A DNA stretch of 32,685 nucleotides. It comes from an uncultured Gammaproteobacteria bacterium. Lineage in GTDB: Bacteria > Patescibacteriota > Patescibacteriia > Patescibacteriales > XYC2-FULL-47-12. Where the stretch lies: positions 1 to 32,685 of the forward strand of contig CAYPRN010000003.1 of NCBI GenBank assembly GCA_964413295.1, read 5' to 3'. Both the position numbers and the translations under genes were made by a program. The notes below the pieces were generated by a model. That model made no database searches. It was not told the DNA's origin and was given only the letters and a program-made list of their open reading frames with translations. Positions 3,710 to 32,286 of this stretch are shown here, piece by piece. Position 1 is the stretch's first letter. Each line of letters begins with the position of its first letter.

Positions 3710-3733
3710 ATATTCTTTTAATAAATGAAATTG

Positions 3734-3892
3734 GTTGTGTAGAAAATAGAAATTAGTAATGGAAATTGGAAAATAGAAAGAGAATAGTTGCGCTAATTTC
3801 CAATTTCTATTTTCCCTGCCTGCCGGCCCGCTTCGCCAGAGCTATAGCGAGGCGAGCAGGCAGGTATTACGAATTTCTAATTTCTAAGCAAC
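3734..3892. repeat. long AT-rich palindromic element (GAAATTGGAAAATAGAAAG family), filled copy
   Basis: The arms are about 90% identical to the element at 24674..24783. This copy carries a nested GC-rich insertion. Confidence 0.65.
3815..3864. repeat. GC-rich ~50-nt palindromic mini-element nested in the AT-rich palindrome
   Basis: CCTGCCTGCCGGCCCGCTTCGCCAGAGCTATAGCGAGGCGAGCAGGCAGG. It is absent from the otherwise collinear copy at 24674..24783. A related copy lies inside recO (22726..22778). Confidence 0.7.
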
Positions 3893-3897
3893 TATTT

Positions 3898-5058
3898 TTA
3901 CTTCGTATCTTTAATAGACAACGCTGGTCTTAGGCCGATTAAAATCACTACAGCAACTACTAAAAAAATATATTGCAAAGGCAGGAACTTCAGCAAAATT
4001 GTCGCTGATAATGTTCCAAAAAGCCAAGCAACCGGCCGGATATCGCGGAACAAATCAATTAGGTCCATATCTTTTTTATTAACTATTTTGAAAAAATGAA
4101 CATCCTGCATGGCTTCCACTAAAGAAGCTCCTACTCTAGTTATAAACAAAATGGATGTCCAAACTAAAAAACTAGTTGATTGAATAAAAAATATTGATCC
4201 AGTAGAAATCATCATAATAATCAATCCTATAACCATTATTTCTTTTTCTCCTAAATAGCGATCAGCTAAATTTCCGGCTGGCAGTTGAAAAATTACAAAC
4301 GGTAAAAGCATAATAGTAAACATTACGCCTAACTGTGACCATTCAAAACCAATGTATTCATGCAAATAAAGAGGTGTATATAACACCATAATACAATAAA
4401 AAAATCGTAGCACAAAAGATACTTTAAAGATTTTAGCTAAATTTTTATTATGTTTAAAAACTTTTAACAACTGATGCAATGGCCTATTTTTATAACAAGT
4501 GTTATCTTTCAAATTTTTTCTTTCCATCAATAAAATGAAAACTGTTGGCAACAACACTATTCCCGAAACAAAGTATATTAACCAATAAGAGTTAGTGCCA
4601 ATAATATAACCCATAGTGATTGGCGCGATTACCCATGCAGTATTCATAATAGTCAAAAAAGTCGTCCTAATTCTTCCGGTATGCGCGGTATCTGATATAT
4701 TTTCTAAAAAAACATCTATATTAATCGCTATTAAATTCCAACTCAAAAAGTGCAAAATAAAAAATAATAATACAATCCATTTATTTAATGCGTATCCCAA
4801 AGCAAAAGCGCTGATAATTAAAGTGAATAGCAAAAAAATAGTTACTAAATAATTGCTGTGTCTTTTAATAAATCGGGGAAAAAAGAAAATAGCCACTAAA
4901 GTAATAAAAGTAGCTAAGGCAATATAGATACTTATTATGCTAATATCCATAAACTGCCCCAAAAAAGAAGACTGGATATAACTAGGTAAAGCTCCGGCAA
5001 AAGCCCAGAGAAAACCAAAAGCATAAATTAGTAAAAAAGTTAATCTATTTCTGATCAT
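3898..5058 (-). CDS. MFS-type transporter
   Basis: About 12 predicted hydrophobic helices in the 6+6 organisation typical of MFS. I moved the start to MIRNRLTF (5058) because the upstream 10 codons are encoded by the hairpin repeat. Confidence 0.7.
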   Translation of the reverse strand: MIRNRLTFLLIYAFGFLWAFAGALPSYIQSSFLGQFMDISIISIYIALATFITLVAIFFFPRFIKRHSNYLVTIFLLFTLIISAFALGYALNKWIVLLFFILHFLSWNLIAINIDVFLENISDTAHTGRIRTTFLTIMNTAWVIAPITMGYIIGTNSYWLIYFVSGIVLLPTVFILLMERKNLKDNTCYKNRPLHQLLKVFKHNKNLAKIFKVSFVLRFFYCIMVLYTPLYLHEYIGFEWSQLGVMFTIMLLPFVIFQLPAGNLADRYLGEKEIMVIGLIIMMISTGSIFFIQSTSFLVWTSILFITRVGASLVEAMQDVHFFKIVNKKDMDLIDLFRDIRPVAWLFGTLSATILLKFLPLQYIFLVVAVVILIGLRPALSIKDTK

Positions 5059-5067
5059 AATGTTATT

Positions 5068-5146
5068 CCCCACAAATCTACAAATCAACTACAAATAATA
5101 CAAATAGCTATTCGTGATATTTGTAGCTGATTTGTAGATTCGTGGG
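5068..5146. repeat. intercistronic word-hairpin (CAAATCTA family)
   Basis: CCCACAAATCTACAAATCAACTACAAATA ... TATTTGTAGCTGATTTGTAGATTCGTGGG. Near-perfect inverted repeat about 10 nt upstream of the MFS start. Confidence 0.65.
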
Positions 5147-9351: not shown

Positions 9352-9525
9352 GCCACTTGAGTACTTGTCCGCCTTGGGCGGACCGACCCCATGCCTTTGC
9401 AAAGCAAAGGAAATAATAAATTCTAAATATCAAACAACAAATAAATTATAAATTATAAAATTTAAAAACACTTTAGAATTTATAATTTCTTTGGAATTTA
9501 CTATTTACTATTTGTGATTTACGCC

Positions 9526-10401: not shown

Positions 10402-10467
10402 TTAGTTACTTAGTTAATTAGTTACTTAGTTGATAAATAAAAACTAAGTAACTAATTAACTGATTAA
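10402..10467. repeat. intercistronic word-hairpin (TTAGTTA family)
   Basis: TTAGTTACTTAGTTAATTAGTTACTTAGTT-loop-AACTAAGTAACTAATTAACTGATTAA. A small GC hairpin CCCCTGCC..GGCGGGG follows at 10468..10489. Confidence 0.65.
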
Positions 10468-10507
10468 CCCCTGCCTTTTACAGGCGGGGTAAACTAGCTA
10501 ACTATTA

Positions 10508-13422: not shown

Positions 13423-13462
13423 GTTTAGTTGATTAGTTACTTAGTTAATCAGTTGCTTAGTT
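13423..13462. repeat. left arm of inverted repeat enclosing the four-helix-bundle gene
   Basis: GTTTAGTTGATTAGTTACTTAGTTAATCAGTTGCTTAGTT (TTAGTTA word family). It partners 13818..13860. Confidence 0.6.
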
Positions 13463-13817
13463 TTTTATTGTTTACTGATTTTTTGTTTTTTAAAAACTTA
13501 ATATAACCGTTTATACCTTTTATTAATTCAATATATTTTTCTACAGTAAAATTTTTTTGATATGCTCTTTCAATTCCACTTTTTGTTTCTTCTGCTTCAC
13601 CTCTAGCTATATATAAATGATTTATTTTTGTACCAAATGAATATTTGCCATAACTTTCTGCAATATTATTTGGCACCGAAGAAGATGATCTTTTTAATTG
13701 ATCAATACTTCTATATTTTTCTTCTTTTGGAAATTTTTCATCGCAAACTCTATAAACAAAAACTTCTAATCTAACAGCCATTTTATAAATCTTTAAATTT
13801 TCTAAACCTGTAGCCAT
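13449..13817 (-). CDS. four-helix-bundle protein (23S rRNA intervening-sequence protein family)
   Basis: 122 aa. Family hallmarks: LKIYKMAVRLEVFVYRV...FPKEEKYRSIDQLKRSSSSVPNNIAESYG...ARGEAEE. Confidence 0.8.
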   Translation of the reverse strand: MATGLENLKIYKMAVRLEVFVYRVCDEKFPKEEKYRSIDQLKRSSSSVPNNIAESYGKYSFGTKINHLYIARGEAEETKSGIERAYQKNFTVEKYIELIKGINGYIKFLKNKKSVNNKKLSN

Positions 13818-13860
13818 AACTGTGTAACTAATTAACTGTGTAACTATGTAACTAAACTAA
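13818..13860. repeat. right arm of inverted repeat enclosing the four-helix-bundle gene
   Basis: AACTGTGTAACTAATTAACTGTGTAACTATGTAACTAAACTAA, an imperfect complement of 13423..13462. Confidence 0.6.
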
Positions 13861-15729: not shown

Positions 15730-16431
15730 TCACATTCTACTAATTTGAATATCTCCAAATAAAATTTTCTGCTGGGCCGATATTGATTTTTGCTTCATTA
15801 ATTCTAATAAGGCAATAAAATTTATAATCACGTTAATTCTGTCGCCTTTTTTTTCCAACAACGAATTAAAACTGACTTGTTTTAACTTTTTTAAAGCTTC
15901 TTTGATTAAAGCAATTTTTTCATCAATGCTGATTGATTTTATAATTGTATCTTCTTCTAAAACTTCTGGCGGTTTTACCATATTAACAACTTCTTGAAAG
16001 ATTGAATGCAAAATTCCCTTACTTACATTAGGTGGCGGATAAAATACTCCTTTTTCAGAAGCAGCTAATTTAAGCATATCACGCCCATGCATAAAATTTC
16101 TTTTTTCTAATATTTTTTCAACAACCCTAGAAGCTTCTAAAAAATCTTTATAAATCTTCAGCTGATTGGCAAAATCCTGAATTTCTTCTTCATCCTCATC
16201 TTTAATTAAATATGGCAACAAAGTCTTTGACTTAATAAGCAAAAGACGGGCCGCTATTACTAAAAAGTTAGCCACCTCTTCAGGATCTATATTTTTATTA
16301 TTTTCTATGTATTGAATATACTGGTCCGCAATTTTTGCTAAACTAACCTCGGTAATGTCCAATTTTTCCTCTTCAATCATAGCCAAAAGCAAATCTAACG
16401 GACCCTCGAATTTTTCGGTATGTATGTTCAT
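15730..16431 (-). CDS. scpA: segregation and condensation protein A
   Basis: FEGPLDLLLAMIEEEKLDITEVSLAKIADQY is the ScpA N-terminus. Start moved to MNIHTEKF (16431) because the upstream 8 codons lie in the repeat arm. Confidence 0.85.
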   Translation of the reverse strand: MNIHTEKFEGPLDLLLAMIEEEKLDITEVSLAKIADQYIQYIENNKNIDPEEVANFLVIAARLLLIKSKTLLPYLIKDEDEEEIQDFANQLKIYKDFLEASRVVEKILEKRNFMHGRDMLKLAASEKGVFYPPPNVSKGILHSIFQEVVNMVKPPEVLEEDTIIKSISIDEKIALIKEALKKLKQVSFNSLLEKKGDRINVIINFIALLELMKQKSISAQQKILFGDIQISRM

Positions 16432-16471
16432 AAAAACAAGAAAACAAAAAAGCAAAAAAACAAGAAAACAA
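16432..16471. repeat. left arm of inverted repeat enclosing the second four-helix-bundle gene
   Basis: AAAAACAAGAAAACAAAAAAGCAAAAAAACAAGAAAACAA, complementary to words in 16864..16928. Confidence 0.6.
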
Positions 16472-16482
16472 TGTGTAATTTT

Positions 16483-16845
16483 TTATTTTCTCGCAACTTT
16501 ATCTAAATTATCAATCTCTTTCCAAAGCATAGCGCATAATTCTTCAGCCATCTCCAATCCTATAAGATAATTTTCTTTACTTAAATATTCTTCTATAAAA
16601 GAAAAATATAATAAATATTTTGATTCTTTCAAGGAACCGAAGGAAATCTCTAAAAAATTTAAACGTACTAATGGTTTTTTTCTAGCATAACCTTCAATAT
16701 AATTTAAAACGACTGATATAGATGCTCTGCGAATTTGTGAAACAACTCCATACAGCTCACTTTTTGGAAAATCTTTAGTAACTTTATAAACAAAATGTGC
16801 ATATTTGTCCATCTTTTCAACTAAACTTTTTTGATAACTATTCAT
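16483..16845 (-). CDS. four-helix-bundle protein (23S rRNA intervening-sequence protein family)
   Basis: From MNSYQKSLVEKMDKYAHFVYKVTKDFPKSELYGVVSQIRRASISVVLNYIEGYARK... (120 aa). The 41-codon N-terminal extension in the track is a translated repeat arm. Confidence 0.8.
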   Translation of the reverse strand: MNSYQKSLVEKMDKYAHFVYKVTKDFPKSELYGVVSQIRRASISVVLNYIEGYARKKPLVRLNFLEISFGSLKESKYLLYFSFIEEYLSKENYLIGLEMAEELCAMLWKEIDNLDKVARK

Positions 16846-16858
16846 AACAAGATTATTA

Positions 16859-17428
16859 TTACTTTTTCTTTGTTTTTTTGCTTTTTTGTTGTCTTGTTTT
16901 TTTATTGTCTTGTTTTTTTGCTTTTTTGACACTCTTCTTCGCCACACTAAAACTCCCCTCACTAGCATTTTCTAAATTCAAGAAATCTTTCACTTTCATT
17001 TCTATAGAATGATTTACACCACCAGAACTAAACACAGCTTTTTTGGTCTTTGCTAGAGCTTTATCTATAATCACTGGCAATTTATACAAATTACCAAAGG
17101 CGCTGACAGTTCCATTTTTTATTTTCAAAGCATCCTGCATAACTTTTTCCCCAGGAATTTTCACTACTTTTACATCTTTTTGTTTCAATTTGCTAACATT
17201 TTTTTTCACTTTTTCTAAGTCTAGATTCTTATTAGCCGGCAAAAGCACTAAAAAATAGTCTTTATCTGCTTTCACTACTAAAGACTTGGCAATCTCTTCT
17301 AATTTTTTCCCCATGGTCATAGCCACGTCATAGGCAGTATAGACTGTTTTATGCTCTATAATATCATATGGCACACCCGCTTTTTCTAAATATTTAATAA
17401 CTTTTTTTGGTAACTTTTTTTTAGACAT
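16859..17428 (-). CDS. YbaK/prolyl-tRNA-synthetase-associated (aminoacyl-tRNA deacylase) domain protein
   Basis: From MSKKKLPKKVIKYLEKAGVPYDIIEHKTVYTAYDVA...KSLVVKADKDYFLVLLPANKNLDLEKV...SGG. YbaK/EbsC-like layout. Start moved to 17428. Confidence 0.7.
   Translation of the reverse strand: MSKKKLPKKVIKYLEKAGVPYDIIEHKTVYTAYDVAMTMGKKLEEIAKSLVVKADKDYFLVLLPANKNLDLEKVKKNVSKLKQKDVKVVKIPGEKVMQDALKIKNGTVSAFGNLYKLPVIIDKALAKTKKAVFSSGGVNHSIEMKVKDFLNLENASEGSFSVAKKSVKKAKKQDNKKTRQQKSKKTKKK
16864..16928. repeat. right arm of inverted repeat, overlapping the 3' end of the ybaK-like CDS
   Basis: TTTTTCTTTGTTTTTTTGCTTTTTTGTTGTCTTGTTTTTTTATTGTCTTGTTTTTTTGCTTTTTTG. On the coding strand it encodes the Lys-rich tail KKAKKQDNKKTRQQKSKKTKKK. 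Confidence 0.6.
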
Positions 17429-17438
17429 ATATTTTATC

Positions 17439-17512
17439 GCGCAACACATAACATAAGAGCACATAACGCTAAATAATGGCATGTTATGCGTTACACGTTA
17501 TGCGTTATGTGT
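17439..17512. repeat. intercistronic word-hairpin (CATAACGC family)
   Basis: GCGCAACACATAACATAAGAGCACATAACGC-loop-GCATGTTATGCGTTACACGTTATGCGTTATGTGT. Same family as 20324..20400. Both lie about 10 nt upstream of a start codon. Confidence 0.65.
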
Positions 17513-17644
17513 ATATGTATTATACCCTAATTACCTATCTTAAGCAAAACCATTGACTTATTTTTAAAGTCATAATAACATTAGAGCTAATCCCGAGAGT
17601 TCGGGACTGTTTTTTAAAATTCCACAATCAATGGAGGATTGATT

Positions 17645-17848
17645 ATGAAGAAATTACTGATTATCACATTGTTAGTCTTAATATGCTTAATTATCATTCC
17701 AGAGATATTGAACACGGATGAGGCTAAAATTTCATCTAATCATAAAGATGAAAATTCGCCAAAAACTCCAAAGAAAAACGAATTTCCTTTGGCTACCATA
17801 CCAGTAGTACCAGAAATACCTAGACTAGATGGAAAAGAAAAATATTGA
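17645..17848 (+). CDS. small membrane-anchored/secreted protein
   Basis: 67 aa starting at ATG 17645, preceded by GGAGG at 7-nt spacing. N-terminal hydrophobic helix, then a polar Pro/Lys-rich tail. Confidence 0.45.
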   Translation: MKKLLIITLLVLICLIIIPEILNTDEAKISSNHKDENSPKTPKKNEFPLATIPVVPEIPRLDGKEKY

Positions 17849-17873
17849 CTTGTGGAAAAAATTTAGTTAAAAT
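17845..17873 (+). promoter_or_regulatory. near-consensus sigma70-like promoter
   Basis: TTGACT-17 nt-TAAAAT. It overlaps the stop codon of the preceding small gene. Confidence 0.55.
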
Positions 17874-18044
17874 AAAGACAGATAGTTCCTTACAACTAGT
17901 ATATTTACGCTACAAAAATTATGCTTCATTCTGCTTGAGAAAGGAGAATAGGAAGTTAAAGTATTTTTTCACAAGCATAAAGCGTAAACATGCTGGTATA
18001 TTCGACGACACATTCGATATTTGTGAAAGCACAGGAGAAAAATC

Positions 18045-18095
18045 ATGCCCACACATGGACCCCCCTCCGACAGTTTTTCAGTGATCGATTCCTAG
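18045..18095 (+). CDS. micro-ORF 1 (16 aa, MPTHGPPSDSFSVIDS), speculative
   Basis: AGGAGAAAAATCATG is a perfect SD plus spacer plus ATG. Confidence 0.25.
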   Translation: MPTHGPPSDSFSVIDS

Positions 18096-18394
18096 GCCGA
18101 ATGGCGGTGTGAACAATCATGCAACTAAATCTAAATGCTGTAAGTGGGGTTGCCCTAAGAGATGTTGCGGTATTGTAACACAATTCCATAACACCGAGGG
18201 AACCCTAACTAAAAACATATTTTTCGAGAATAGAAATTAATAGGAAAAGATTAGTCGGAAAAAACAGGTCAGACCCTAAAACTACAAGGGTGCCTGAAAA
18301 AATTAAAATTCCGCTGTCTTAAATTCTGCTAATTTCTGTTCACCTTGGTTATAACCCTCCGGAGATATTTCCCCTAAGAATAAGGAGAAAAATC

Positions 18395-18445
18395 ATGATA
18401 CGTGGTTCCCCTTTTACGAGCTTTTCGCTCTCTACGCTACGGTGA
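18395..18445 (+). CDS. micro-ORF 2 (16 aa, MIRGSPFTSFSLSTLR), speculative
   Basis: Same 14-nt SD/start module. The peptide aligns with micro-ORF 1 over xGxPxxSFS. Confidence 0.25.
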   Translation: MIRGSPFTSFSLSTLR

Positions 18446-18794
18446 TGATACTGTACTGATACTGTATAATTTTTCAACGGGATTTATGATCTTTTCGTAA
18501 AATCTAAATTCTGTTCACGAAAAATTCTAACATCGAGGTTAAAAATGCAACTGAAATATCCCAATTCCATGGTCATCTCTGCTTAAAACACTACATAGCA
18601 AGATGACCGGCAAAGATTATAGACATGCCTACGAATTCGCTGAATGCCAAAAAGGAGTAATTTCATACTACGAACAGGAAGATACGTAAAGGGAGATGGT
18701 TGAGAGGGGTGGTGACACTCCCTTAAACGCGAATAAAATTTCGCCCAGAAAATCGTGGCCAGAAAACCTCAAGATGAAAACTGGGAGAAAAATC

Positions 18795-18971
18795 ATGAAT
18801 CGAAAGTTCACTGATCGGACCGCTCGCGGAAGCCCGTCTTTGGCTTCCGCCGTCGTCCTCCAAAAAGAAAACGGTTCAACAACCGAAAACACTTCCACGT
18901 CCGGTGTCGTCGCCATTACTATAGATGGGATGACCGGTTTCGGGATCGACAAGAGAACCACCTACGTCTAA
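18795..18971 (+). CDS. small ORF 3 (58 aa from MNRKFTDRTARGSP...), speculative
   Basis: Same 14-nt SD/start module. It is the in-frame 3' part of track ORF 18696..18971. About 50% GC, and an antisense ORF of similar length is also open. Confidence 0.3.
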   Translation: MNRKFTDRTARGSPSLASAVVLQKENGSTTENTSTSGVVAITIDGMTGFGIDKRTTYV

Positions 18972-19014
18972 AAAAGATCAGACGAGGTCTAATCCCGTCA
19001 AGGAAGTACCACAA

Positions 19015-19053
19015 GGGGGCAACTTGCTAAAACTGCAAGCTCTGCCCCTTTTT
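19015..19053 (+). terminator. strong intrinsic terminator
   Basis: GGGGCAACTTGC-TAAAACT-GCAAGCTCTGCCCC followed by T5. Confidence 0.7.
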
Positions 19054-19066
19054 AATTTTCTACCTA

Positions 19067-19151
19067 CTGTCATTGCGAGCCGTAGGCGAAGCAATCCCGT
19101 GAGAAATATTGAAATATTCACGAGATCGTGTCGCTTCGCTCGCGATGACAG
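19067..19151. repeat. GTCATTGCGAG...CGCGATGAC palindromic repeat
   Basis: CTGTCATTGCGAGCCGTAGGCGAAGCAATCCCGTGAG...CACGAGATCGTGTCGCTTCGCTCGCGATGACAG. Confidence 0.75.
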
Positions 19152-19227
19152 TGAACCACAAAAGAACGCTTTACAACGTTCTTTTTTTATTTATTATTTT
19201 ATTATTCTAGAAAAAATCCATTCCTTT

Positions 19228-19326
19228 TGTCATTCCGGGCGTAGTGAAGCGAAGACCCGGAATCCAGAAAATATATATAAAAAAACAAATTTTTATTTCT
19301 GGATTCCCGCTTTCGCGGGAATGACA
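19228..19326. repeat. GTCATTCCGGG...CGGGAATGAC palindromic repeat
   Basis: TGTCATTCCGGGCGTAGTGAAGCGAAGACCCGGAATCCAGAAA...TTTCTGGATTCCCGCTTTCGCGGGAATGACA. Track ORFs 19024..19350 and 19202..19411 are translations of these repeats. Confidence 0.75.
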
Positions 19327-19379
19327 ATAAAGCATAGAACAGTAGTGTAAAACAAAAAAATTTAGAAATGACAGTTAAT

Positions 19380-20315
19380 TTAAAACCTAACCGGCATTGG
19401 CTGTTTTTCATTATTATCTAAAGCTTTCTTTTCTATACATTGATACCCAGCATCATGCTCCCAGTTGCTGGCAAAATAATCTTTGCTTTCATAAGGATCA
19501 TTATCGTTAATATTAGATCGCTGAAAATCAGTGCAAAGTTCATATTTTTTCGTATCTAATATTTTAAACTCAAATATCTTCTTAGTTATTGGATTTCTTA
19601 AATCATCTTCAGCAATGTAATCTACTGCTTCTTTGACTGCTTCTAATGATTCTGGTAATTTATTCTCTTCAGTATAATATTGCTGGACAGCGTTTTCAAT
19701 AATGCTTAAGCGATTAACAACTTCATTATCAAAACGCTTTGCTCTGGCTTCCAATGGCGACTCTACAAATAAAATTCCGCCGATAAAAATTAATGCCGAT
19801 AAAATAATTACTGCGAATAAATAAATTTTATTAACTTTATTTTTTTCTCCTTCAATTTTTTCTCGCTTAATATCATGCAAATAATAATAAAAAATAGCTC
19901 CGGCAATAATTAGCACTGTCAATGCTTTTAAAATAAATTTTAAAGTCAATTCTCCATTTAAAAAATTAAAAATCGTGCCGATTGCCCATCCACCCATGGT
20001 TAAGGCAGTCACTAAAATTATCAAATAAGTCAGCCATTTTCTGATCGCTGAATCTTTGTCTAAAACGCCTGTAAATAAATTTTTATTTATCTGCCAGGCG
20101 GTCGTCAGATAAACCGGGGCCGAAACAATCATCGCGGCAATGGCATAGCGCAATAAATTAACATCATAGCGCATACTGTAATTTTCTACGATATCGGCGA
20201 TATTTTTATTAATAACCTGAAAGACAACCACGCCGGCAAAAATAGCGAAAAATGCTAACGACACTAGTGATAGCAAATATAAAAATGTAAACTTGGCTGT
20301 ATTGTTGTTTGACAT
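19380..20315 (-). CDS. multi-pass membrane protein with soluble C-terminal domain, function unknown
   Basis: 311 aa from MSNNNTAKF. About five hydrophobic helices, then a Cys-containing C-terminal domain. Possibly DUF5671-like, but that is my recollection only. Confidence 0.55.
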   Translation of the reverse strand: MSNNNTAKFTFLYLLSLVSLAFFAIFAGVVVFQVINKNIADIVENYSMRYDVNLLRYAIAAMIVSAPVYLTTAWQINKNLFTGVLDKDSAIRKWLTYLIILVTALTMGGWAIGTIFNFLNGELTLKFILKALTVLIIAGAIFYYYLHDIKREKIEGEKNKVNKIYLFAVIILSALIFIGGILFVESPLEARAKRFDNEVVNRLSIIENAVQQYYTEENKLPESLEAVKEAVDYIAEDDLRNPITKKIFEFKILDTKKYELCTDFQRSNINDNDPYESKDYFASNWEHDAGYQCIEKKALDNNEKQPMPVRF

Positions 20316-20323
20316 ATATTTAT

Positions 20324-20400
20324 AATCGCATAACACATAACTTAAAACGCATAACGCTAAATTATAACACGTTACGCGTTATGCGTTGTGCGTTTATGCG
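20324..20400. repeat. intercistronic word-hairpin (CATAACGC family)
   Basis: AATCGCATAACACATAACTTAAAACGCATAACGC-loop-ACGTTACGCGTTATGCGTTGTGCGTTTATGCG. Confidence 0.65.
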
Positions 20401-20471
20401 TATTTGTATTATAGCATTAACTGTTATAACAAAAAAGGGCTTAATTATAAACCCTTTTCACTATTTACTAT

Positions 20472-23757: not shown

Positions 23758-23840
23758 TTAGTTAATCAGTTACTTAGTTAATCAGTTACTTAGTTAATTG
23801 CACAGATAAAACCGTGTAACTAATTAACTGATTAACTAAT
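23758..23840. repeat. intercistronic word-hairpin (TTAGTTA family)
   Basis: TTAGTTAATCAGTTACTTAGTTAATCAGTTACTTAGTTAATTG-loop-GTGTAACTAATTAACTGATTAACTAATTAAC. Confidence 0.65.
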
Positions 23841-24616
23841 TAACTTTCTGTAATAACCACATGTCCATCATCTGTCACCGCCACAGTGTGTTCAAAATGA
23901 GCCGCTAAACTTTTATCTTTGGTTATAAAACTAAAGTCATTTTTTCCAGTAGTCACCTGCCAATCCCCTTTGGTTACCATCGGTTCAATCGCAATCACCA
24001 AACCTGACTCTAATTTAATGTCAGATAAATCCTCTTCCTCTACATCATAGTTCGGCACTTGTGGCTCTTCGTGAACCGCATAACCAACACCATGCCCTAC
24101 CAATTCGCGCACTACATTAAATCCATTTGCTTCAGCGTTAATTTGAATAGCGCGGGCAATATCATACAAAGTATTCCCCGGCTTTACTTTTTTAATTGCT
24201 AACTCTAAACACTGTTCAGTTGTTTTAATAAGCTTAGCTGTGTCAGCTTCAACATCTCCCACCGGAACAGTAATAGCAGTGTCTGTAAAAAGATTTTTAT
24301 ATTTCATCCCAATATCTAAACTAATAATATCTCCTTGTTCTAAAAATCTACCAGGCTTTGCCGGAGCATGCACAATCTCTTCATTAATTGATGTACATAA
24401 AGCAGTCGGAAATGGCTGGGAATTTTTTGACTGTCTATAACCTTTAAAAGCAGGGACTCCCCCTGCTTTTTTTATTAATTCAATTGCTTTTTGCTCAAGC
24501 TCTGCTGTGTTAATTCCTGGCTTAACTAAATTACCTAGCTGTTGTAAAATCTCAGCCAAAATTTTTCCTCCTTCTCGTAAAATTTTTATTTCTTCTAGTG
24601 TTTTTAGTTTAATCAT
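23840..24616 (-). CDS. map: methionine aminopeptidase, type I
   Basis: 258 aa with the metal ligand context (DIISLDIG, HGVG, IEP, FEHT). Confidence 0.9.
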   Translation of the reverse strand: MIKLKTLEEIKILREGGKILAEILQQLGNLVKPGINTAELEQKAIELIKKAGGVPAFKGYRQSKNSQPFPTALCTSINEEIVHAPAKPGRFLEQGDIISLDIGMKYKNLFTDTAITVPVGDVEADTAKLIKTTEQCLELAIKKVKPGNTLYDIARAIQINAEANGFNVVRELVGHGVGYAVHEEPQVPNYDVEEEDLSDIKLESGLVIAIEPMVTKGDWQVTTGKNDFSFITKDKSLAAHFEHTVAVTDDGHVVITES

Positions 24617-24673
24617 ATGTTCAAGCTACTTTTTACGTATTTACGATTTTGTCAAACTATTAATTAGAAAATA

Positions 24674-24783
24674 GTTGTTTAGAAATTTGAAATTAGTAAT
24701 AGAAATTGGAAAATAGAAAGTCGGAAGTTTTTTCTAATTTCCAATTTTTATTTTCTATTACTATTTTCTAATTTCTAAACAAC
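24674..24783. repeat. long AT-rich palindromic element (GAAATTGGAAAATAGAAAG family), empty copy
   Basis: GTTGTTTAGAAATTTGAAATTAGTAATAGAAATTGGAAAATAGAAAG-loop-CTAATTTCCAATTTTTATTTTCTATTACTATTTTCTAATTTCTAAACAAC. Collinear with 3734..3892 minus the GC insert. Confidence 0.7.
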
Positions 24784-24839
24784 GAATTTCTATTATGATT
24801 AACGAGTTACAAGCCATTTAAAAACGTACAGTTATATTT

Positions 24840-28112: not shown

Positions 28113-28915
28113 TTAGCTATTTTTATACTCTAAAGGCAATCTTTGTTTTAAATCTTTATTAACAAAAATATTAAATTTTTTATTACGAAACCCTTCAGTA
28201 AAATTTTTAACTCCTAAATTTTCTTTAATAAATTTAACTAATTCCTTCTTATTTTTATCTCCCTTATTAATAATGTTAGTTGCCATTTTTAAATCATAAT
28301 TAATTGCCCCAATAAAAAGATCAACAACCTGCAATAAATCATTTCCTCTTGAATCAAATCGGCATACTCCGATCATAACTAAGCGTCTAGCATTTCTATT
28401 AATTGTATTTTTTACTCCAACCTCATAATAAACATTTTTTGGAGTTGTTACGTGGTCAGCTAATAATATTAAAATCTCATTAGGACTTAAGGCTGATTCA
28501 GCTAAACGAATTGAAATTTCTTCATAAGCTGTCCACGGATTACCATTAAATTCTCTTTGAAAATAATTACCATGTTTGTCTACTGTATAAGAATAAAACC
28601 ATATACTTTTAGTATCCAAAAAAGCATCAATAGCAAATTTAGCAAAATCAATATTACGCCTAGATAATTTATTAAATTTCATTTCATCATGAAAATTTCT
28701 CTTATTTCTCTCATAAACTAATTTGCTATACAAATAATATGGTTTTGGCTACATTTAATTAAATCTACCGTGAAAAATGGAGCAGTTTTTGGATCTAAAC
28801 TCCCACTTTCATCAAAAAAACAAAACTTAGTCCAAATTTTATTATATTCTTTCAATTTCAGCTCTCCTGTTGAATCTACATTATCATGATCTTTATTTTT
28901 TCTTTTAAAAAACAT
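28113..28915 (-). pseudogene. DUF3800 family protein, split by a frameshift at an A4 run
   Basis: Track ORFs 28718..28915 (FFDESGS motif) and 28113..28733 (HDEMKF, LLQVVDLFIGAI motifs) are the N- and C-terminal parts of one DUF3800-type protein. The frames overlap at 28734..28748 around CCAAAACC. Confidence 0.65.
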
Positions 28916-29934: not shown

Positions 29935-29967
29935 CTTGTCCGATAAGCAAATTGCTTATCGGACAAG
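29935..29967. repeat. 33-nt palindrome, copy 2 (31 nt upstream of the paralogue B start)
   Basis: CTTGTCCGATAAGCAAATTGCTTATCGGACAAG, with perfect 15-bp arms. Confidence 0.85.
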
Positions 29968-30032: not shown

Positions 30033-30218
30033 TCACATGCACAAAATCAGGCCATTCAAAATTTGATCCGCCTTTTTTGATTCAACTAAAAACTTTATTC
30101 CCGGCGCGTTCAGCCCTTGCGCATATTCTTCAGCAGTAGATAAATTAGGAAATGTAGCCTGTAAAAAAGCCTCACTTGACTTTGAAGTAACTCTATAAAC
30201 AGCTGTAGGATGTCCCAT
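30033..30218 (-). CDS. small hypothetical protein (61 aa)
   Basis: Strong SD (AAAGGAGAAGAAAAATG). Third gene of the three-gene operon. Confidence 0.45.
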   Translation of the reverse strand: MGHPTAVYRVTSKSSEAFLQATFPNLSTAEEYAQGLNAPGIKFLVESKKADQILNGLILCM

Positions 30219-30232
30219 TTTTCTTCTCCTTT

Positions 30233-30454
30233 CTAAGAAGAAATAATAGTGAAAGGATCAATATTTCTTACAATGGCAGGTATTATTCTTTTCTGCAAGT
30301 CCTTAAGGTGAAATTGTAGTGATTCTCTTTTCCCTGAAGCAATTTTTTTTTGCGACAGCTTTTCTTCTATCGCTGTCGCCTGATCGCAACAACGTAGATA
30401 CTTGTCATACAAAACATCTGAACCGTTTAATCCTGATTCTTTATTTGCGCTCAT
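30233..30454 (-). CDS. small helical hypothetical protein (73 aa)
   Basis: Strong SD (AAGGAGAAATAAAATG). Its start lies 1 nt after the stop of the upstream ORF, which suggests translational coupling. Confidence 0.5.
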   Translation of the reverse strand: MSANKESGLNGSDVLYDKYLRCCDQATAIEEKLSQKKIASGKRESLQFHLKDLQKRIIPAIVRNIDPFTIISS

Positions 30455-30455
30455 T

Positions 30456-30830
30456 TTATTTCTCCTTCTTGCCCCGTCCTTTCGTGAGAGGCGAGGTTTT
30501 GGTTAGCTTTTTACAAATTTTATCAATGCCGCCATTTAAACGCTTACTTCCATGCCCATTCTTTGAGAAAGAAAACTTAATGTCACAAAAGTCTTTTTTA
30601 CCTATCAAACTTAATGCCCCTGCGATCGCATCCTTTAATGCCTGCTGAACATCTTTTCCTTCTCCACTCCACCGCACCTTAAAACTCCTTTTTTCAGAAA
30701 TTAATTTAACGCAAATATTCACATTGACAGTTTGACTGCCTCTTTTTACACTTCCGTTTCTACTGATAACCTTTTCAAAAAAAGGCCTTTCTACAAACTC
30801 TACACTTACTTCATTTTTCTCATCTGACAT
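30456..30830 (-). CDS. small protein, island paralogue A (124 aa) with basic C-terminal tail
   Basis: Strong SD (GAGGGAGGACGAACATCATG). Contains WSGEGKDVQQALKDAIAGALSLIG and the tail KKLTKTSPLTKGRGKKEK. Confidence 0.6.
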   Translation of the reverse strand: MSDEKNEVSVEFVERPFFEKVISRNGSVKRGSQTVNVNICVKLISEKRSFKVRWSGEGKDVQQALKDAIAGALSLIGKKDFCDIKFSFSKNGHGSKRLNGGIDKICKKLTKTSPLTKGRGKKEK

Positions 30831-30862: not shown

Positions 30863-30895
30863 CTTGTTCGATAAGCAATTTGCTTGTCGGACAAG
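30863..30895. repeat. 33-nt palindrome, copy 3 (32 nt upstream of the paralogue A start)
   Basis: CTTGTTCGATAAGCAATTTGCTTGTCGGACAAG. Confidence 0.85.
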
Positions 30896-31255: not shown

Positions 31256-31332
31256 AAAAATCATTGAAAGTTTATCCTAAATTCAAATTAATATTAAGCA
31301 ATAATATAATAGCTTTAAACTTAAATCCTTAT

Positions 31333-31462
31333 CCTACTAATTACGAATCACTTACTAATATACGAGTACTACTTAAACGGTTTATAAAAATATAAACTAT
31401 TAGTTTGCTAAAGTAGGTTAATAGAATATTGGTATATTCGTAAAAGATTCGTAATTAGTAGG
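31333..31462. repeat. long word-hairpin (TTCGTAAT/TACTAAT family)
   Basis: CCTACTAATTACGAATCACTTACTAATATACGAGTACTACTT ... AAGTAGGTTAATAGAATATTGGTATATTCGTAAAAGATTCGTAATTAGTAGG. Confidence 0.6.
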
Positions 31463-31583
31463 GAAACAAAGTCTGTTTATATAATATGCTTTATATATAT
31501 CAGAATGAATTTAAAAAAACTTTATGTGAGTTTGTGTATAGGTTATTATATAATATTTTTATTCATTTAACAAGGTTAAATAT

Positions 31584-32201: not shown

Positions 32202-32204
32202 ATT

Positions 32205-32286
32205 GTTTAGTTGCTTAGTTGCTTAGTTGCTTAGTTATTTTAATCACACAAACTATGTAACTGATTAACTAAGTAACTGATTAACT
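32205..32286. repeat. intercistronic word-hairpin (TTAGTTG/TTAGTTA family)
   Basis: GTTTAGTTGCTTAGTTGCTTAGTTGCTTAGTTA-loop-AACTATGTAACTGATTAACTAAGTAACTGATTAACT. Confidence 0.65.

Follow-up and report, generated by a model that had tools for sequence, protein, structure and literature searches.

What lies between the genes for a Peptidase_S11 protein and an Sm_multidrug_ex protein on contig CAYPRN010000003.1 of assembly GCA_964413295.1? We analyzed 32,685 nucleotides (nt) of this contig, hereafter the window, and at this junction we found a small gene of the PF05635 (23S_rRNA_IVP) family set between inverted arms of tandem octamers, an arrangement that we call cassette 1. The window is AT-rich (33% GC), and its gene content and protein homologues point to the Patescibacteria, or Candidate Phyla Radiation (CPR), with the nearest relatives labelled Falkowbacteria. 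The cassette 1 gene occupies 13449–13817 on the minus strand and encodes 122 amino acids (aa) from an ATG start. An earlier, sequence-only reading of the window had picked this open reading frame (ORF) from the ORF list and named its family; profile matches bear out both, to PF05635 (86.5 bits against a cutoff of 33.8; E 1.7e-24) and to TIGR02436, “four helix bundle protein” (76.3 bits against a cutoff of 24; E 1.9e-21).

The same reading had described inverted arms on either side of the gene, and these were recovered by inverted- and tandem-repeat searches, shuffles, and folding. The 5′ arm lies at 13818–13857 on the minus strand (about five degenerate tandem octamers, TTAGTTAC / ATAGTTAC / ACAGTTAA and so on) and the 3′ arm at 13423–13462, also minus (AACTAAGC / AACTGATT / AACTAAGT and so on). 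The two arms, each 40 nt long, show 78% complementarity and are separated by 355 nt. Both are imperfect tandem arrays with a period of 8 and a 16-nt super-period, composed of TTAGTTAN and NTAACTAA octamer types, with TTAGTTAN-type words upstream of the gene and their reverse complements downstream. Both spacers around the gene are filled exactly by the arms: the Peptidase_S11 gene upstream has a TAG stop codon that the 5′ arm overlaps, and this arm adjoins the cargo ATG, while the 3′ arm encodes the L-S-N-stop of the cargo and adjoins the ATG of the downstream Sm_multidrug_ex gene. The terminal codons KLSN-stop had been assigned to the arm as a group; the K falls just outside it. Cassette 1 is identical in sequence across four independent assemblies, and the contig was seen again in ERZ27248922, JGI 3300005645, ERZ27248954, and SRR8437279.

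Does the complementarity of the arms exceed what two AT-rich segments would give? In the shuffle test that the sequence-only reading had proposed, it does. The arm–arm duplex of cassette 1 has an energy of −28.7 kcal/mol, versus −7.3±2.4 kcal/mol for mononucleotide shuffles (0/2000 as low as observed), −12.7±2.9 kcal/mol for dinucleotide shuffles (1/2000), and −21.9±3.3 kcal/mol for shuffles of octamer order (62/2000). Most of the signal, therefore, is that the arms are built of mutually complementary word families. In the 471-nt fold of the cassette, a long-range stem closes the ORF in both the minimum free energy and the centroid structure (z = −3.55).

Borders complementary to each other, which pair into an extended stem and leave the rest of the element as its loop, also characterize the intervening sequences (IVSs) of rRNA. 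However, cassette 1 is flanked by the Peptidase_S11 and Sm_multidrug_ex genes, not located at the tip of an rRNA helix (helix 9, 25, or 45 of 23S rRNA). An Rfam scan of the window found no rRNA and only two tRNAs at the gathering threshold. PADLOC gave no match in the window, and a search of viral contigs yielded no relatives.

A second cassette and the PF05635 protein

The sequence-only reading had suggested surveying other family members for flanking inverted repeats (IRs), and the window itself holds such a case. A second PF05635/TIGR02436 gene, identified by gene call and profile matches (PF05635, 86.2 bits, E 2.1e-24; TIGR02436, 83.3 bits), occupies 16483–16845 on the minus strand and encodes 120 aa from the ATG at 16845; its product is 26% identical to the cassette 1 protein. 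Its 5′ arm (16865–16936, minus strand) comprises about eight octamers in tandem, of the CAAAAAAG / CAAGACAA type, and its 3′ arm (16428–16471, minus strand; TTGTTTTC / TTGTTTTT / TTGCTTTT and so on) runs into the start of scpA. The paired arms span 44 nt at 82% complementarity, with a 37-nt core at 92%. Their duplex energy is −37.9 kcal/mol versus −24.5±3.4 kcal/mol in shuffles (0/1000 as low), and the fold of this cassette 2 has z = −4.41. The layout resembles that of cassette 1, while the arm words are unrelated. The final codons of the upstream tRNA_edit (YbaK-like) gene contain the 5′ arm of cassette 2, which gives the tRNA_edit product a Lys-rich C-terminal tail (KKAKKQDNKKTRQQKSKKTKKK, encoded at 16859–16936 on the minus strand); the orthologues in two related lineages, L085 and L087, are 7–20 residues shorter. 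Judged from this comparison, the arm has apparently extended a host protein.

What kind of protein does the loop encode? An AlphaFold2 model of the cassette 1 protein (monomer, 26-sequence alignment) has a mean predicted local distance difference test (pLDDT) score of 89 and helices at residues 9–28, 31–57, 61–85, and 90–121. A Foldseek search with this model found Xcc0516 (2GSC; template modeling (TM) score 0.74) and BT_0352 (2RLD; TM 0.71) and, more distantly, the protein Avd of diversity-generating retroelements (DGRs; 4DWL, TM 0.64, and 8UB7); 2gsc_A is also matched by sequence (E 9e-7). To our knowledge, PF05635 has no assigned function; the assembly that characterizes the family is a homopentameric ring. 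Of the family motif GxxRxxxSxxxNxxE (PMC3936711), R43, S47, N51, and E54 are present, and the first G is a Q in the clade of the cassette 1 protein; in our alignment (A1), R43, N51, and E54 are invariant and S47 nearly so. The dN/dS (nonsynonymous to synonymous substitution) ratio of the gene is 0.047 against its sister copy L025 and 0.11–0.24 against others, at saturated dS. These ratios indicate that the protein is under purifying selection and functional. The cassette 1 protein lacks eight residues at the start of helix 4 (near residues 88–89) that its close homologues have (consensus KKGFISKEIADF vs. QK--------NF); the model is still confident there, and the gap is the same in the four assemblies. 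A relation between PF05635 and Avd has been described (PMC10053308), and by this homology the protein may bind nucleic acid, perhaps its own arms.

Inverted arms across the PF05635 family

How general is the packaging of PF05635 genes between inverted arms? PF05635 is a very large family, in which one subfamily search alone gave 3032 clusters. A pattern scan with one genome per species gave 78 loci (loci here and below are denoted by L numbers), and 170/150-nt flanks were scored for ungapped IRs with a threshold of ≥14. RNA duplexfold of 80-nt flanks was dropped as a metric that failed to discriminate: shifted controls averaged around −28 kcal/mol, and it overlooked any arm located beyond 80 nt from the ORF. 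By eye, nearly all surveyed loci have tandem words upstream and reverse-complement words downstream. The words vary by locus (TTAGTT, TAAGTT, TTAGGG, GAAGATTA, AGAGAATT, CAGGAAT, and a 16-mer), and the period is mostly 8, sometimes 7 or 9. Among 62 loci, the median IR score was 15.25 versus 8.2 in shifted controls, with 41/62 above every control. The threshold was reached by 66% of 74 PF05635 ORFs but only 5% of 123 other ORFs of 95–165 aa at the same loci (p = 4e-19), and long-range pairing exceeded any local flank hairpin in 63/74 PF05635 ORFs. Ten divergent paralogues from the flanks of the loci each had arm words of their own. The pattern was also found in one Elusimicrobia, one Paludibacter, and one Chitinophagaceae locus, and four further Bacteroidota loci, at four different junctions, scored 15.5–29 versus control maxima of 10.5–13.5. 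The proposal that an ORF in a hairpin loop had come to lie between protein genes is thus upheld by cassette 2, by the difference between family and control ORFs, and by the Bacteroidota loci.

The cassettes fit tightly between their neighbors. Across 39 of them, median spacers were 6 nt from the upstream stop codon to the 5′ arm, 20 nt from the 5′ arm to the cargo ATG, −4 nt from the cargo stop codon to the 3′ arm, and 9 nt from the 3′ arm to the downstream ATG; 59/68 cassettes were co-oriented with the ORFs on both sides. A consensus scan for promoters and terminators gave chance-level results, with none at cassette borders. Shine-Dalgarno-like motifs are rare genome-wide (40/412 ORFs), so their absence before the cargo is uninformative. 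A full-text literature search found no account of flanking inverted tandem repeats at PF05635 genes outside rRNA, an absence that is not proof of novelty, nor any account of arm–protein covariation in the family.

Do the arms belong to the gene or to the place where it sits? Similarity between arms, measured by shared 6-mers, rises with protein identity (Spearman 0.47 for 57 cassettes; 0/300 permutations reach this rho). The correlation persists between different insertion sites with unrelated downstream genes (rho 0.44), where the Jaccard index climbs from 0.018 below 30% protein identity to 0.20 at ≥75%. Conversely, in eight genomes with two divergent paralogues each, the arm pairs share almost no 6-mers. 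One subfamily (L017#2, L011#2, and L030#2; 67–74% identical) carries the same AAGAATAAAAAG-type arms at three junctions in three genomes, while the other PF05635 subfamily in those genomes has TTAG-type arms. Because arms track the protein across sites and differ between paralogues within a genome, they are part of the cassette and not of the insertion site or the genome. The PF05635 gene and its own inverted arm pair are one evolutionary unit, set seamlessly into the spacer between co-oriented genes.

Gain, loss, and decay at operon junctions

How stable is a cassette at its junction? The gene order aspS-DUF5671-tRNA_edit-scpA-scpB-S11-Sm_multidrug_ex-tim-fba-TPR is kept in three related lineages, which allowed the orthologous intergenic regions to be compared, a check that the sequence-only reading had called for. 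In the closest relative (L083/L084; S11 90% identical), the S11–Sm_multidrug_ex junction has the same arms in a 173-nt remnant with a loop of only ~100 nt, which retains the first 18 and last ~20 codons of the PF05635 gene (i.e., an internal deletion). The same junction holds an unrelated GC-rich hairpin without a gene in L085 (S11 62% identical) and an ACTAATC / GATTAGT tandem-arm hairpin without a gene in L087 (S11 58% identical). Likewise, the tRNA_edit–scpA junction of L085 and L087 has no PF05635 gene. The cassette 1 protein falls within a clade of pheS–pheT copies, in which its sister is the pheS–pheT copy L025 (83% identical); this placement implies relocation to a new junction. The claim of possible mobility gains support on its gain-and-loss side, with the gene missing from the junction in two lineages and the nearest protein relatives at pheS–pheT. 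Comparison of related genomes shows the cassette to be gained at new junctions and lost again on short time scales.

Across the family, 15 loci lie between pheS and pheT and about 15 between nusG and rplK, with smaller groups before a ribokinase-like gene and before a PrgI-like gene. Some 35 sites are singletons, including rplE–rpsN and positions upstream of rplT, rplN, rpsK, recA, dnaG, trpS, and ksgA. PF05635 genes have also been reported wedged between cas genes (e.g., cmr3–cmr2), without explanation (PMC3936711). We examined 65 pheS–pheT junctions, sampled without bias from metagenomes: 31 were tight (≤25 nt), 17 had gaps of 26–130 nt, several with tandem-arm hairpins, and 17 were longer. 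None of the 65 held an intact PF05635 gene by hmmsearch; occupancy is therefore sporadic, and the idea that this junction is usually occupied was rejected. Two pheS–pheT loci hold partial copies, the arms and the 3′ end of the gene in L119 and a lone 5′ arm in L090; together with the remnant in L083, they show that gene-less hairpins can arise by cassette decay.

The pheS–pheT spacer (L089–L168) is a hot spot for inserts of several kinds: hairpins, remnants, a GIY-YIG gene, and unrelated ORFs of ~140 aa (L089 and L091). The conserved end of pheS, ...CAGTTTTAA, resembles xAGTTxxx arm words.

Gene-less hairpins of the cassette 1 arm family lie at three other junctions of the window, all on the minus strand and characterized by fold, word count, and arm alignment. 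One, at the fba–TPR junction (10402–10468), has 27-nt arms that are 93% complementary around a 10-nt loop (−27 kcal/mol; z = −6.9). Another reaches from stop codon to start codon at the map–ruvX junction (23758–23845), with 29-nt arms, also 93% complementary, and a loop of 20 nt (−33.6 kcal/mol; z = −6.8). The third, between a response-regulator gene and ndk (32203–32286), pairs more weakly (−18.2 kcal/mol; z = −1.8). The word TTAGTTANNNAGTTA, allowing ≤1 mismatch, occurs 23 times in the window versus 0.85 expected, and 21/23 occurrences fall inside four loci, namely cassette 1 and the three solo hairpins, whose arms align in register, inner ends included. The arm family that the sequence-only reading had drawn across these hairpins is therefore real, with two strong members and a weak third. 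As judged from the remnants in related genomes, the cassette is shown to decay by internal deletion toward gene-less solo hairpins such as these three.

The window carries further intercistronic hairpins with tandem 7–9-nt arms. At 20322–20401 the arms are tandem heptamers of another word family, ATAACGC / CGTTATG (z = −3.6), and at 24665–24792 they are 62-nt arrays of TTAGAAA / TTTCTAA (z = −11.9); neither is assigned a strand. Others lie at 3723–3903, 5069–5146, 9411–9520, and 31316–31479, which makes ~11 in 32.7 kb, the two cassettes and three solo hairpins included, in several unrelated word families. K-mer sharing among short-loop hairpins, compared within and between loci, placed solo hairpins with cassette words in just some genomes (the window, L008, and L030). 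We rejected the notion that every hairpin derives from a PF05635 cassette, as most short-loop hairpins belong to other word families. Turnover can be fast: the fba–TPR hairpin is made of TTAGTTAC words in the window but of CAATTTTCAAT words in L083, despite 90% S11 identity.

PF05635 genes are not the only cargo seen in such loops. GxxExxY/PDDEXK_3 mini-genes lie between inverted tandem-repeat arms in L006 (4905–5390; TIGR04256, E 5e-29), L055 (1401–1793), and L121 (2427–2822), the latter two identified by sequence resemblance only. All three have arm words containing ..ACGAAT.., making them a second cargo family with its own arm family, and the window hairpin at 31316–31479 has the same kind of ACGAAT words without a gene. 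Genes of 97 aa encoding GIY-YIG proteins lie inside GC-rich IRs of the GTCATTGCGAG family in L095 (2090–2383, at the pheS–pheT junction; PF01541, E 2e-14) and L028 (2139–2432, identified by sequence resemblance only). The window has a gene-less hairpin of the GTCATTGCGAG family at 19068–19150 and, at 19228–19330, one of the related GTCATTCC..GGAATGAC family, which also sits at two L085 junctions. IS200/RAYT-like Y1 transposase ORFs, identified by eye, are IR-flanked in L131 (1424–2005) and L023 (1395–1997) and serve as an informal positive control of the IR screen. In L085 (9407–10970), a 79-nt IR surrounds a large serine recombinase gene (Resolvase / Recombinase / Zn_ribbon_recom) after the TPR gene, an insert absent from the window.

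Elsewhere in the window, a near-perfect 33-nt palindrome, CTTGTCCGATAAGCAAATTGCTTATCGGACAAG, occurs in two copies (29935–29967 and 30863–30895) around three small ORFs (30033–30830) without a Pfam match. A 1.5-kb stretch poor in ORFs (17500–19060), located between the DUF5671 and tRNA_edit genes, has a GC content of up to 0.52 versus 0.33 overall. A search of 17400–19420 against Rfam gave nothing convincing at E ≤ 1. The orthologous gap of L087/L088 shares with it a 55-nt block that is 94.5% identical (~18744–18797) and two longer blocks at 65–70%, at an S11 identity of 58%. The stretch is a candidate conserved large non-coding RNA. A guess that the ORF at 28113–28733 encodes a DUF3800 protein was not confirmed.

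Mechanism, alternatives, and significance

How do these cassettes relate to known systems? The nearest likeness is to the ORF-bearing IVSs of 23S rRNA, known from Coxiella burnetii and also from Leptospira and others, in which a protein of the same family lies in the loop of a terminal IR stem. The Coxiella IVS has a 28-bp terminal stem and three tandem heptamers before the S23p ORF, with RNase III cutting at the first repeat, and its ORF is prone to decay, with a 176-bp deletion in one strain (PMC4990558). The cassettes share with it the short tandem repeats directly 5′ of the ORF, the apparent lack of a promoter of their own, and probable transcription within a host transcript; as in ORF-bearing 23S rRNA IVSs, their distribution is sporadic and their ORF can decay. 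PF05635 ORFs have also been found in rRNA insertions of CPR bacteria (bioRxiv 10.1101/2024.02.27.582315). Unlike rRNA IVSs, however, which sit in helix 25 or 45 of 23S rRNA, the cassettes occupy spacers of protein-coding operons; their arms are longer than those of Coxiella (~40 nt) and consist entirely of tandem octamers; and excision by RNase III, demonstrated experimentally for rRNA IVSs, is a prediction for the cassettes.

Other comparisons are more partial. The early mRNA of phage T7 has intercistronic RNase III hairpins that enclose no gene and do not consist of tandem repeats. The cassette resembles these sites as a long stem-loop between the cistrons of a polycistronic mRNA, but differs in its loop gene and its tandem-repeat arms. 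Cyanobacterial genomes contain short tandemly repeated repetitive (STRR) sequences, intergenic tandem 7-nt repeats that often form inverted pairs, as the intergenic cassette arms do; we know of no link between STRR sequences and PF05635.

We consider it probable, with real room for doubt, that the element is an IVS-type hairpin cassette between protein genes: a single unit, gained and lost and prone to decay, that would be stem-looped in its host transcript and cut by RNase III. The cassette is probably transcribed by read-through as part of its host operon, because its neighbors are co-oriented, its spacers have zero length, and promoter and terminator signals do not rise above chance. In the transcript, the arms would pair into a stem of ~40 bp with the cargo gene looped out, so that the stop codon of the upstream gene and the start codon of the downstream gene would meet at the foot of a single helix. 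Judging from the ORF-bearing IVSs of 23S rRNA, so long a stem would be a likely RNase III substrate, and cleavage would free the cargo mRNA and separate the flanking cistrons. The cassette would then be IVS-like in function and architecture while lying outside the rRNA-helix location that defines IVSs, with RNase III processing attributed to it by analogy.

Several observations weigh against this reading. About one third of PF05635 members fall below the IR threshold, and there are variant layouts: arrays that flank the gene in the same orientation instead of inverted (L013 and L032), or ~320-aa fusion ORFs that contain the PF05635 match between GGTAATT-type arrays (L019, L021, L024, and L033). 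The unbiased pheS–pheT sample held no intact copy, relatives carry unrelated hairpins at the same junction, and neither a target-site duplication nor a recombinase or transposase was found for the cassette. Co-transcription, pairing of the arms in vivo, and RNase III cleavage are themselves inferences. Mismatched arm positions comprise 32 G:U versus 35 A:C pairs, so nothing points specifically to selection at the RNA level, and the hairpin is strand-symmetric in any case; arm symmetry could be maintained at the DNA level.

Could the cassette instead be a DNA-level element? Such an element would resemble REPIN/RAYT or an autonomous transposon with its miniature inverted-repeat transposable element (MITE) derivatives. 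The arms would be terminal inverted repeats (TIRs) recognized as DNA (duplex, hairpin, or cruciform), the PF05635 protein would act as factor or cofactor in copying the cassette, along with its gene-less derivatives, to new junctions, and RNA pairing would be a by-product. In REPIN/RAYT systems, the gene for a tyrosine transposase associated with repetitive extragenic palindromic (REP) sequences is flanked by REP hairpins, which are also dispersed as gene-less intergenic copies. The cassette gene likewise lies between inverted copies of a hairpin family whose solo members are scattered over the same genome, and, as in TIR transposons and MITEs, there are inverted ends, an internal gene, and deleted derivatives that keep the ends (the L083 and L119 remnants and the solo hairpins). 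Also in keeping with a DNA-level element are the covariation of arm words with protein clade across sites and genomes, the fast hairpin turnover at orthologous junctions (with the complete difference at fba–TPR between the window and L083), the absence of a G:U bias, the purifying selection on the protein, and the recovery of IR-flanked IS200/RAYT-like Y1 transposases by the same screen in the same data. We nevertheless hold this explanation to be unlikely. PF05635 has no known catalytic activity and no nuclease or recombinase motif, and its structural relatives (2GSC and Avd) are scaffold proteins; it is the sole Pfam match of the cassette gene in the window, which thus encodes a four-helix bundle and no HUH/Y1 transposase domain. 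No target-site duplication is visible at the borders, where the arms meet the stop and start codons directly. These arms are tandem arrays of variable repeat number rather than defined transposon ends, several unrelated cassettes can share a genome in a way foreign to REPIN/RAYT, and the word families of most tandem-arm hairpins in the loci have no counterpart at a nearby PF05635 gene.

The sequence-only reading had suggested another account, in which pre-existing hairpins serve as landing sites. Host hairpins that act as signals for mRNA processing, stability, or insulation would stand at most junctions, and selfish passengers would enter their loops by insertion or recombination. In its favor, the S11–Sm_multidrug_ex junction has a hairpin in all four lineages examined, gene or no gene, so that junction hairpins also exist independently of the gene; ~11 hairpins of several word families crowd the window; assorted hairpins and assorted cargo meet at pheS–pheT; and GxxExxY and GIY-YIG genes sit in hairpin loops as well. 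Moreover, the solo hairpins and the cassette can be aligned right to their inner ends, which makes homologous exchange between a filled and an empty hairpin feasible, and a cassette may recombine into a solo hairpin that shares its arm family. As a general explanation, however, we find the landing-site account quite unlikely and do not favor it. Arm sequence follows the cargo clade across sites (rho 0.44) rather than site or genome, the arms of paralogues within a genome are unrelated, and each cargo family has arms of its own (ACGAAT words for the three GxxExxY genes, GTCATTGCGAG for the two GIY-YIG genes). The hairpins at the orthologous L085 and L087 junctions are unrelated to the cassette arms, and the remnants document directly the passage from filled to empty.

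Two further explanations fare far worse. Avd acts within an RNA–protein complex, and its homologous four-helix-bundle fold (4DWL and 8UB7) raises the idea that the gene is a DGR accessory protein Avd and that the repeats belong to a DGR. Besides the fold, weak matches of the cassette 2 gene (16483–16845) to the Avd models PF22296 bAvd (26.7 bits) and NF033474 (25.2 bits) speak for it, but these stay below the curated cutoffs (40 and 80, respectively), the window contains no reverse-transcriptase-like ORF and no PADLOC match, and the repeats are 8-nt tandem arrays rather than a template/variable repeat pair. We regard this explanation as very improbable and, given the missing reverse transcriptase and the subcutoff scores, ruled out an Avd role for the window. 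Chance complementarity of two AT-rich, low-complexity segments has next to no probability: although the octamer-order shuffle (62/2000) indicates that exact register adds little beyond word content, chance is excluded by the dinucleotide shuffles (1/2000), the excess of the word family (23 versus 0.85), and the IR rates of family and control ORFs (66% versus 5%), and words that differ by locus are always mutually complementary between the two arms.

Returning to the IVS-type cassette, we can sketch a bolder extension, which we offer as a speculation with the odds well against it: PF05635 proteins would bind their own octamer arms, and the cassettes would be an unrecognized class of mobile stem-loop elements, of which rRNA IVSs are a special case. 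If so, an Avd-like, probably pentameric, protein would bind about five tandem 8-nt units of its own arms, as RNA or DNA, and arm words would therefore coevolve with the protein. Arm binding would cause the cassette, as well as its gene-less derivatives, to be copied or maintained, and cassettes could colonize any tolerated hairpin position in highly transcribed RNA. The GxxExxY and GIY-YIG mini-genes, each with an arm family of its own, would represent parallel systems, and the many intercistronic hairpins of Patescibacteria would in large part be debris left by such elements.

Where rRNA IVSs come from and what purpose they serve have been standing questions since 1990. The packaging of PF05635 genes between coevolving inverted tandem-repeat arms is also seen between protein genes, in at least Patescibacteria, Elusimicrobia, and Bacteroidota, and makes the puzzle biochemically testable through protein–arm binding and RNase III cleavage of the stem. 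It also explains why PF05635 genes turn up in the middle of pheST, nusG–rplK, ribosomal-protein, and cas operons (PMC3936711). For genome annotation, it means that a host protein can acquire a tail from an arm, as in tRNA_edit, and it suggests that many of the long intercistronic hairpins in CPR genomes are cassette relics.

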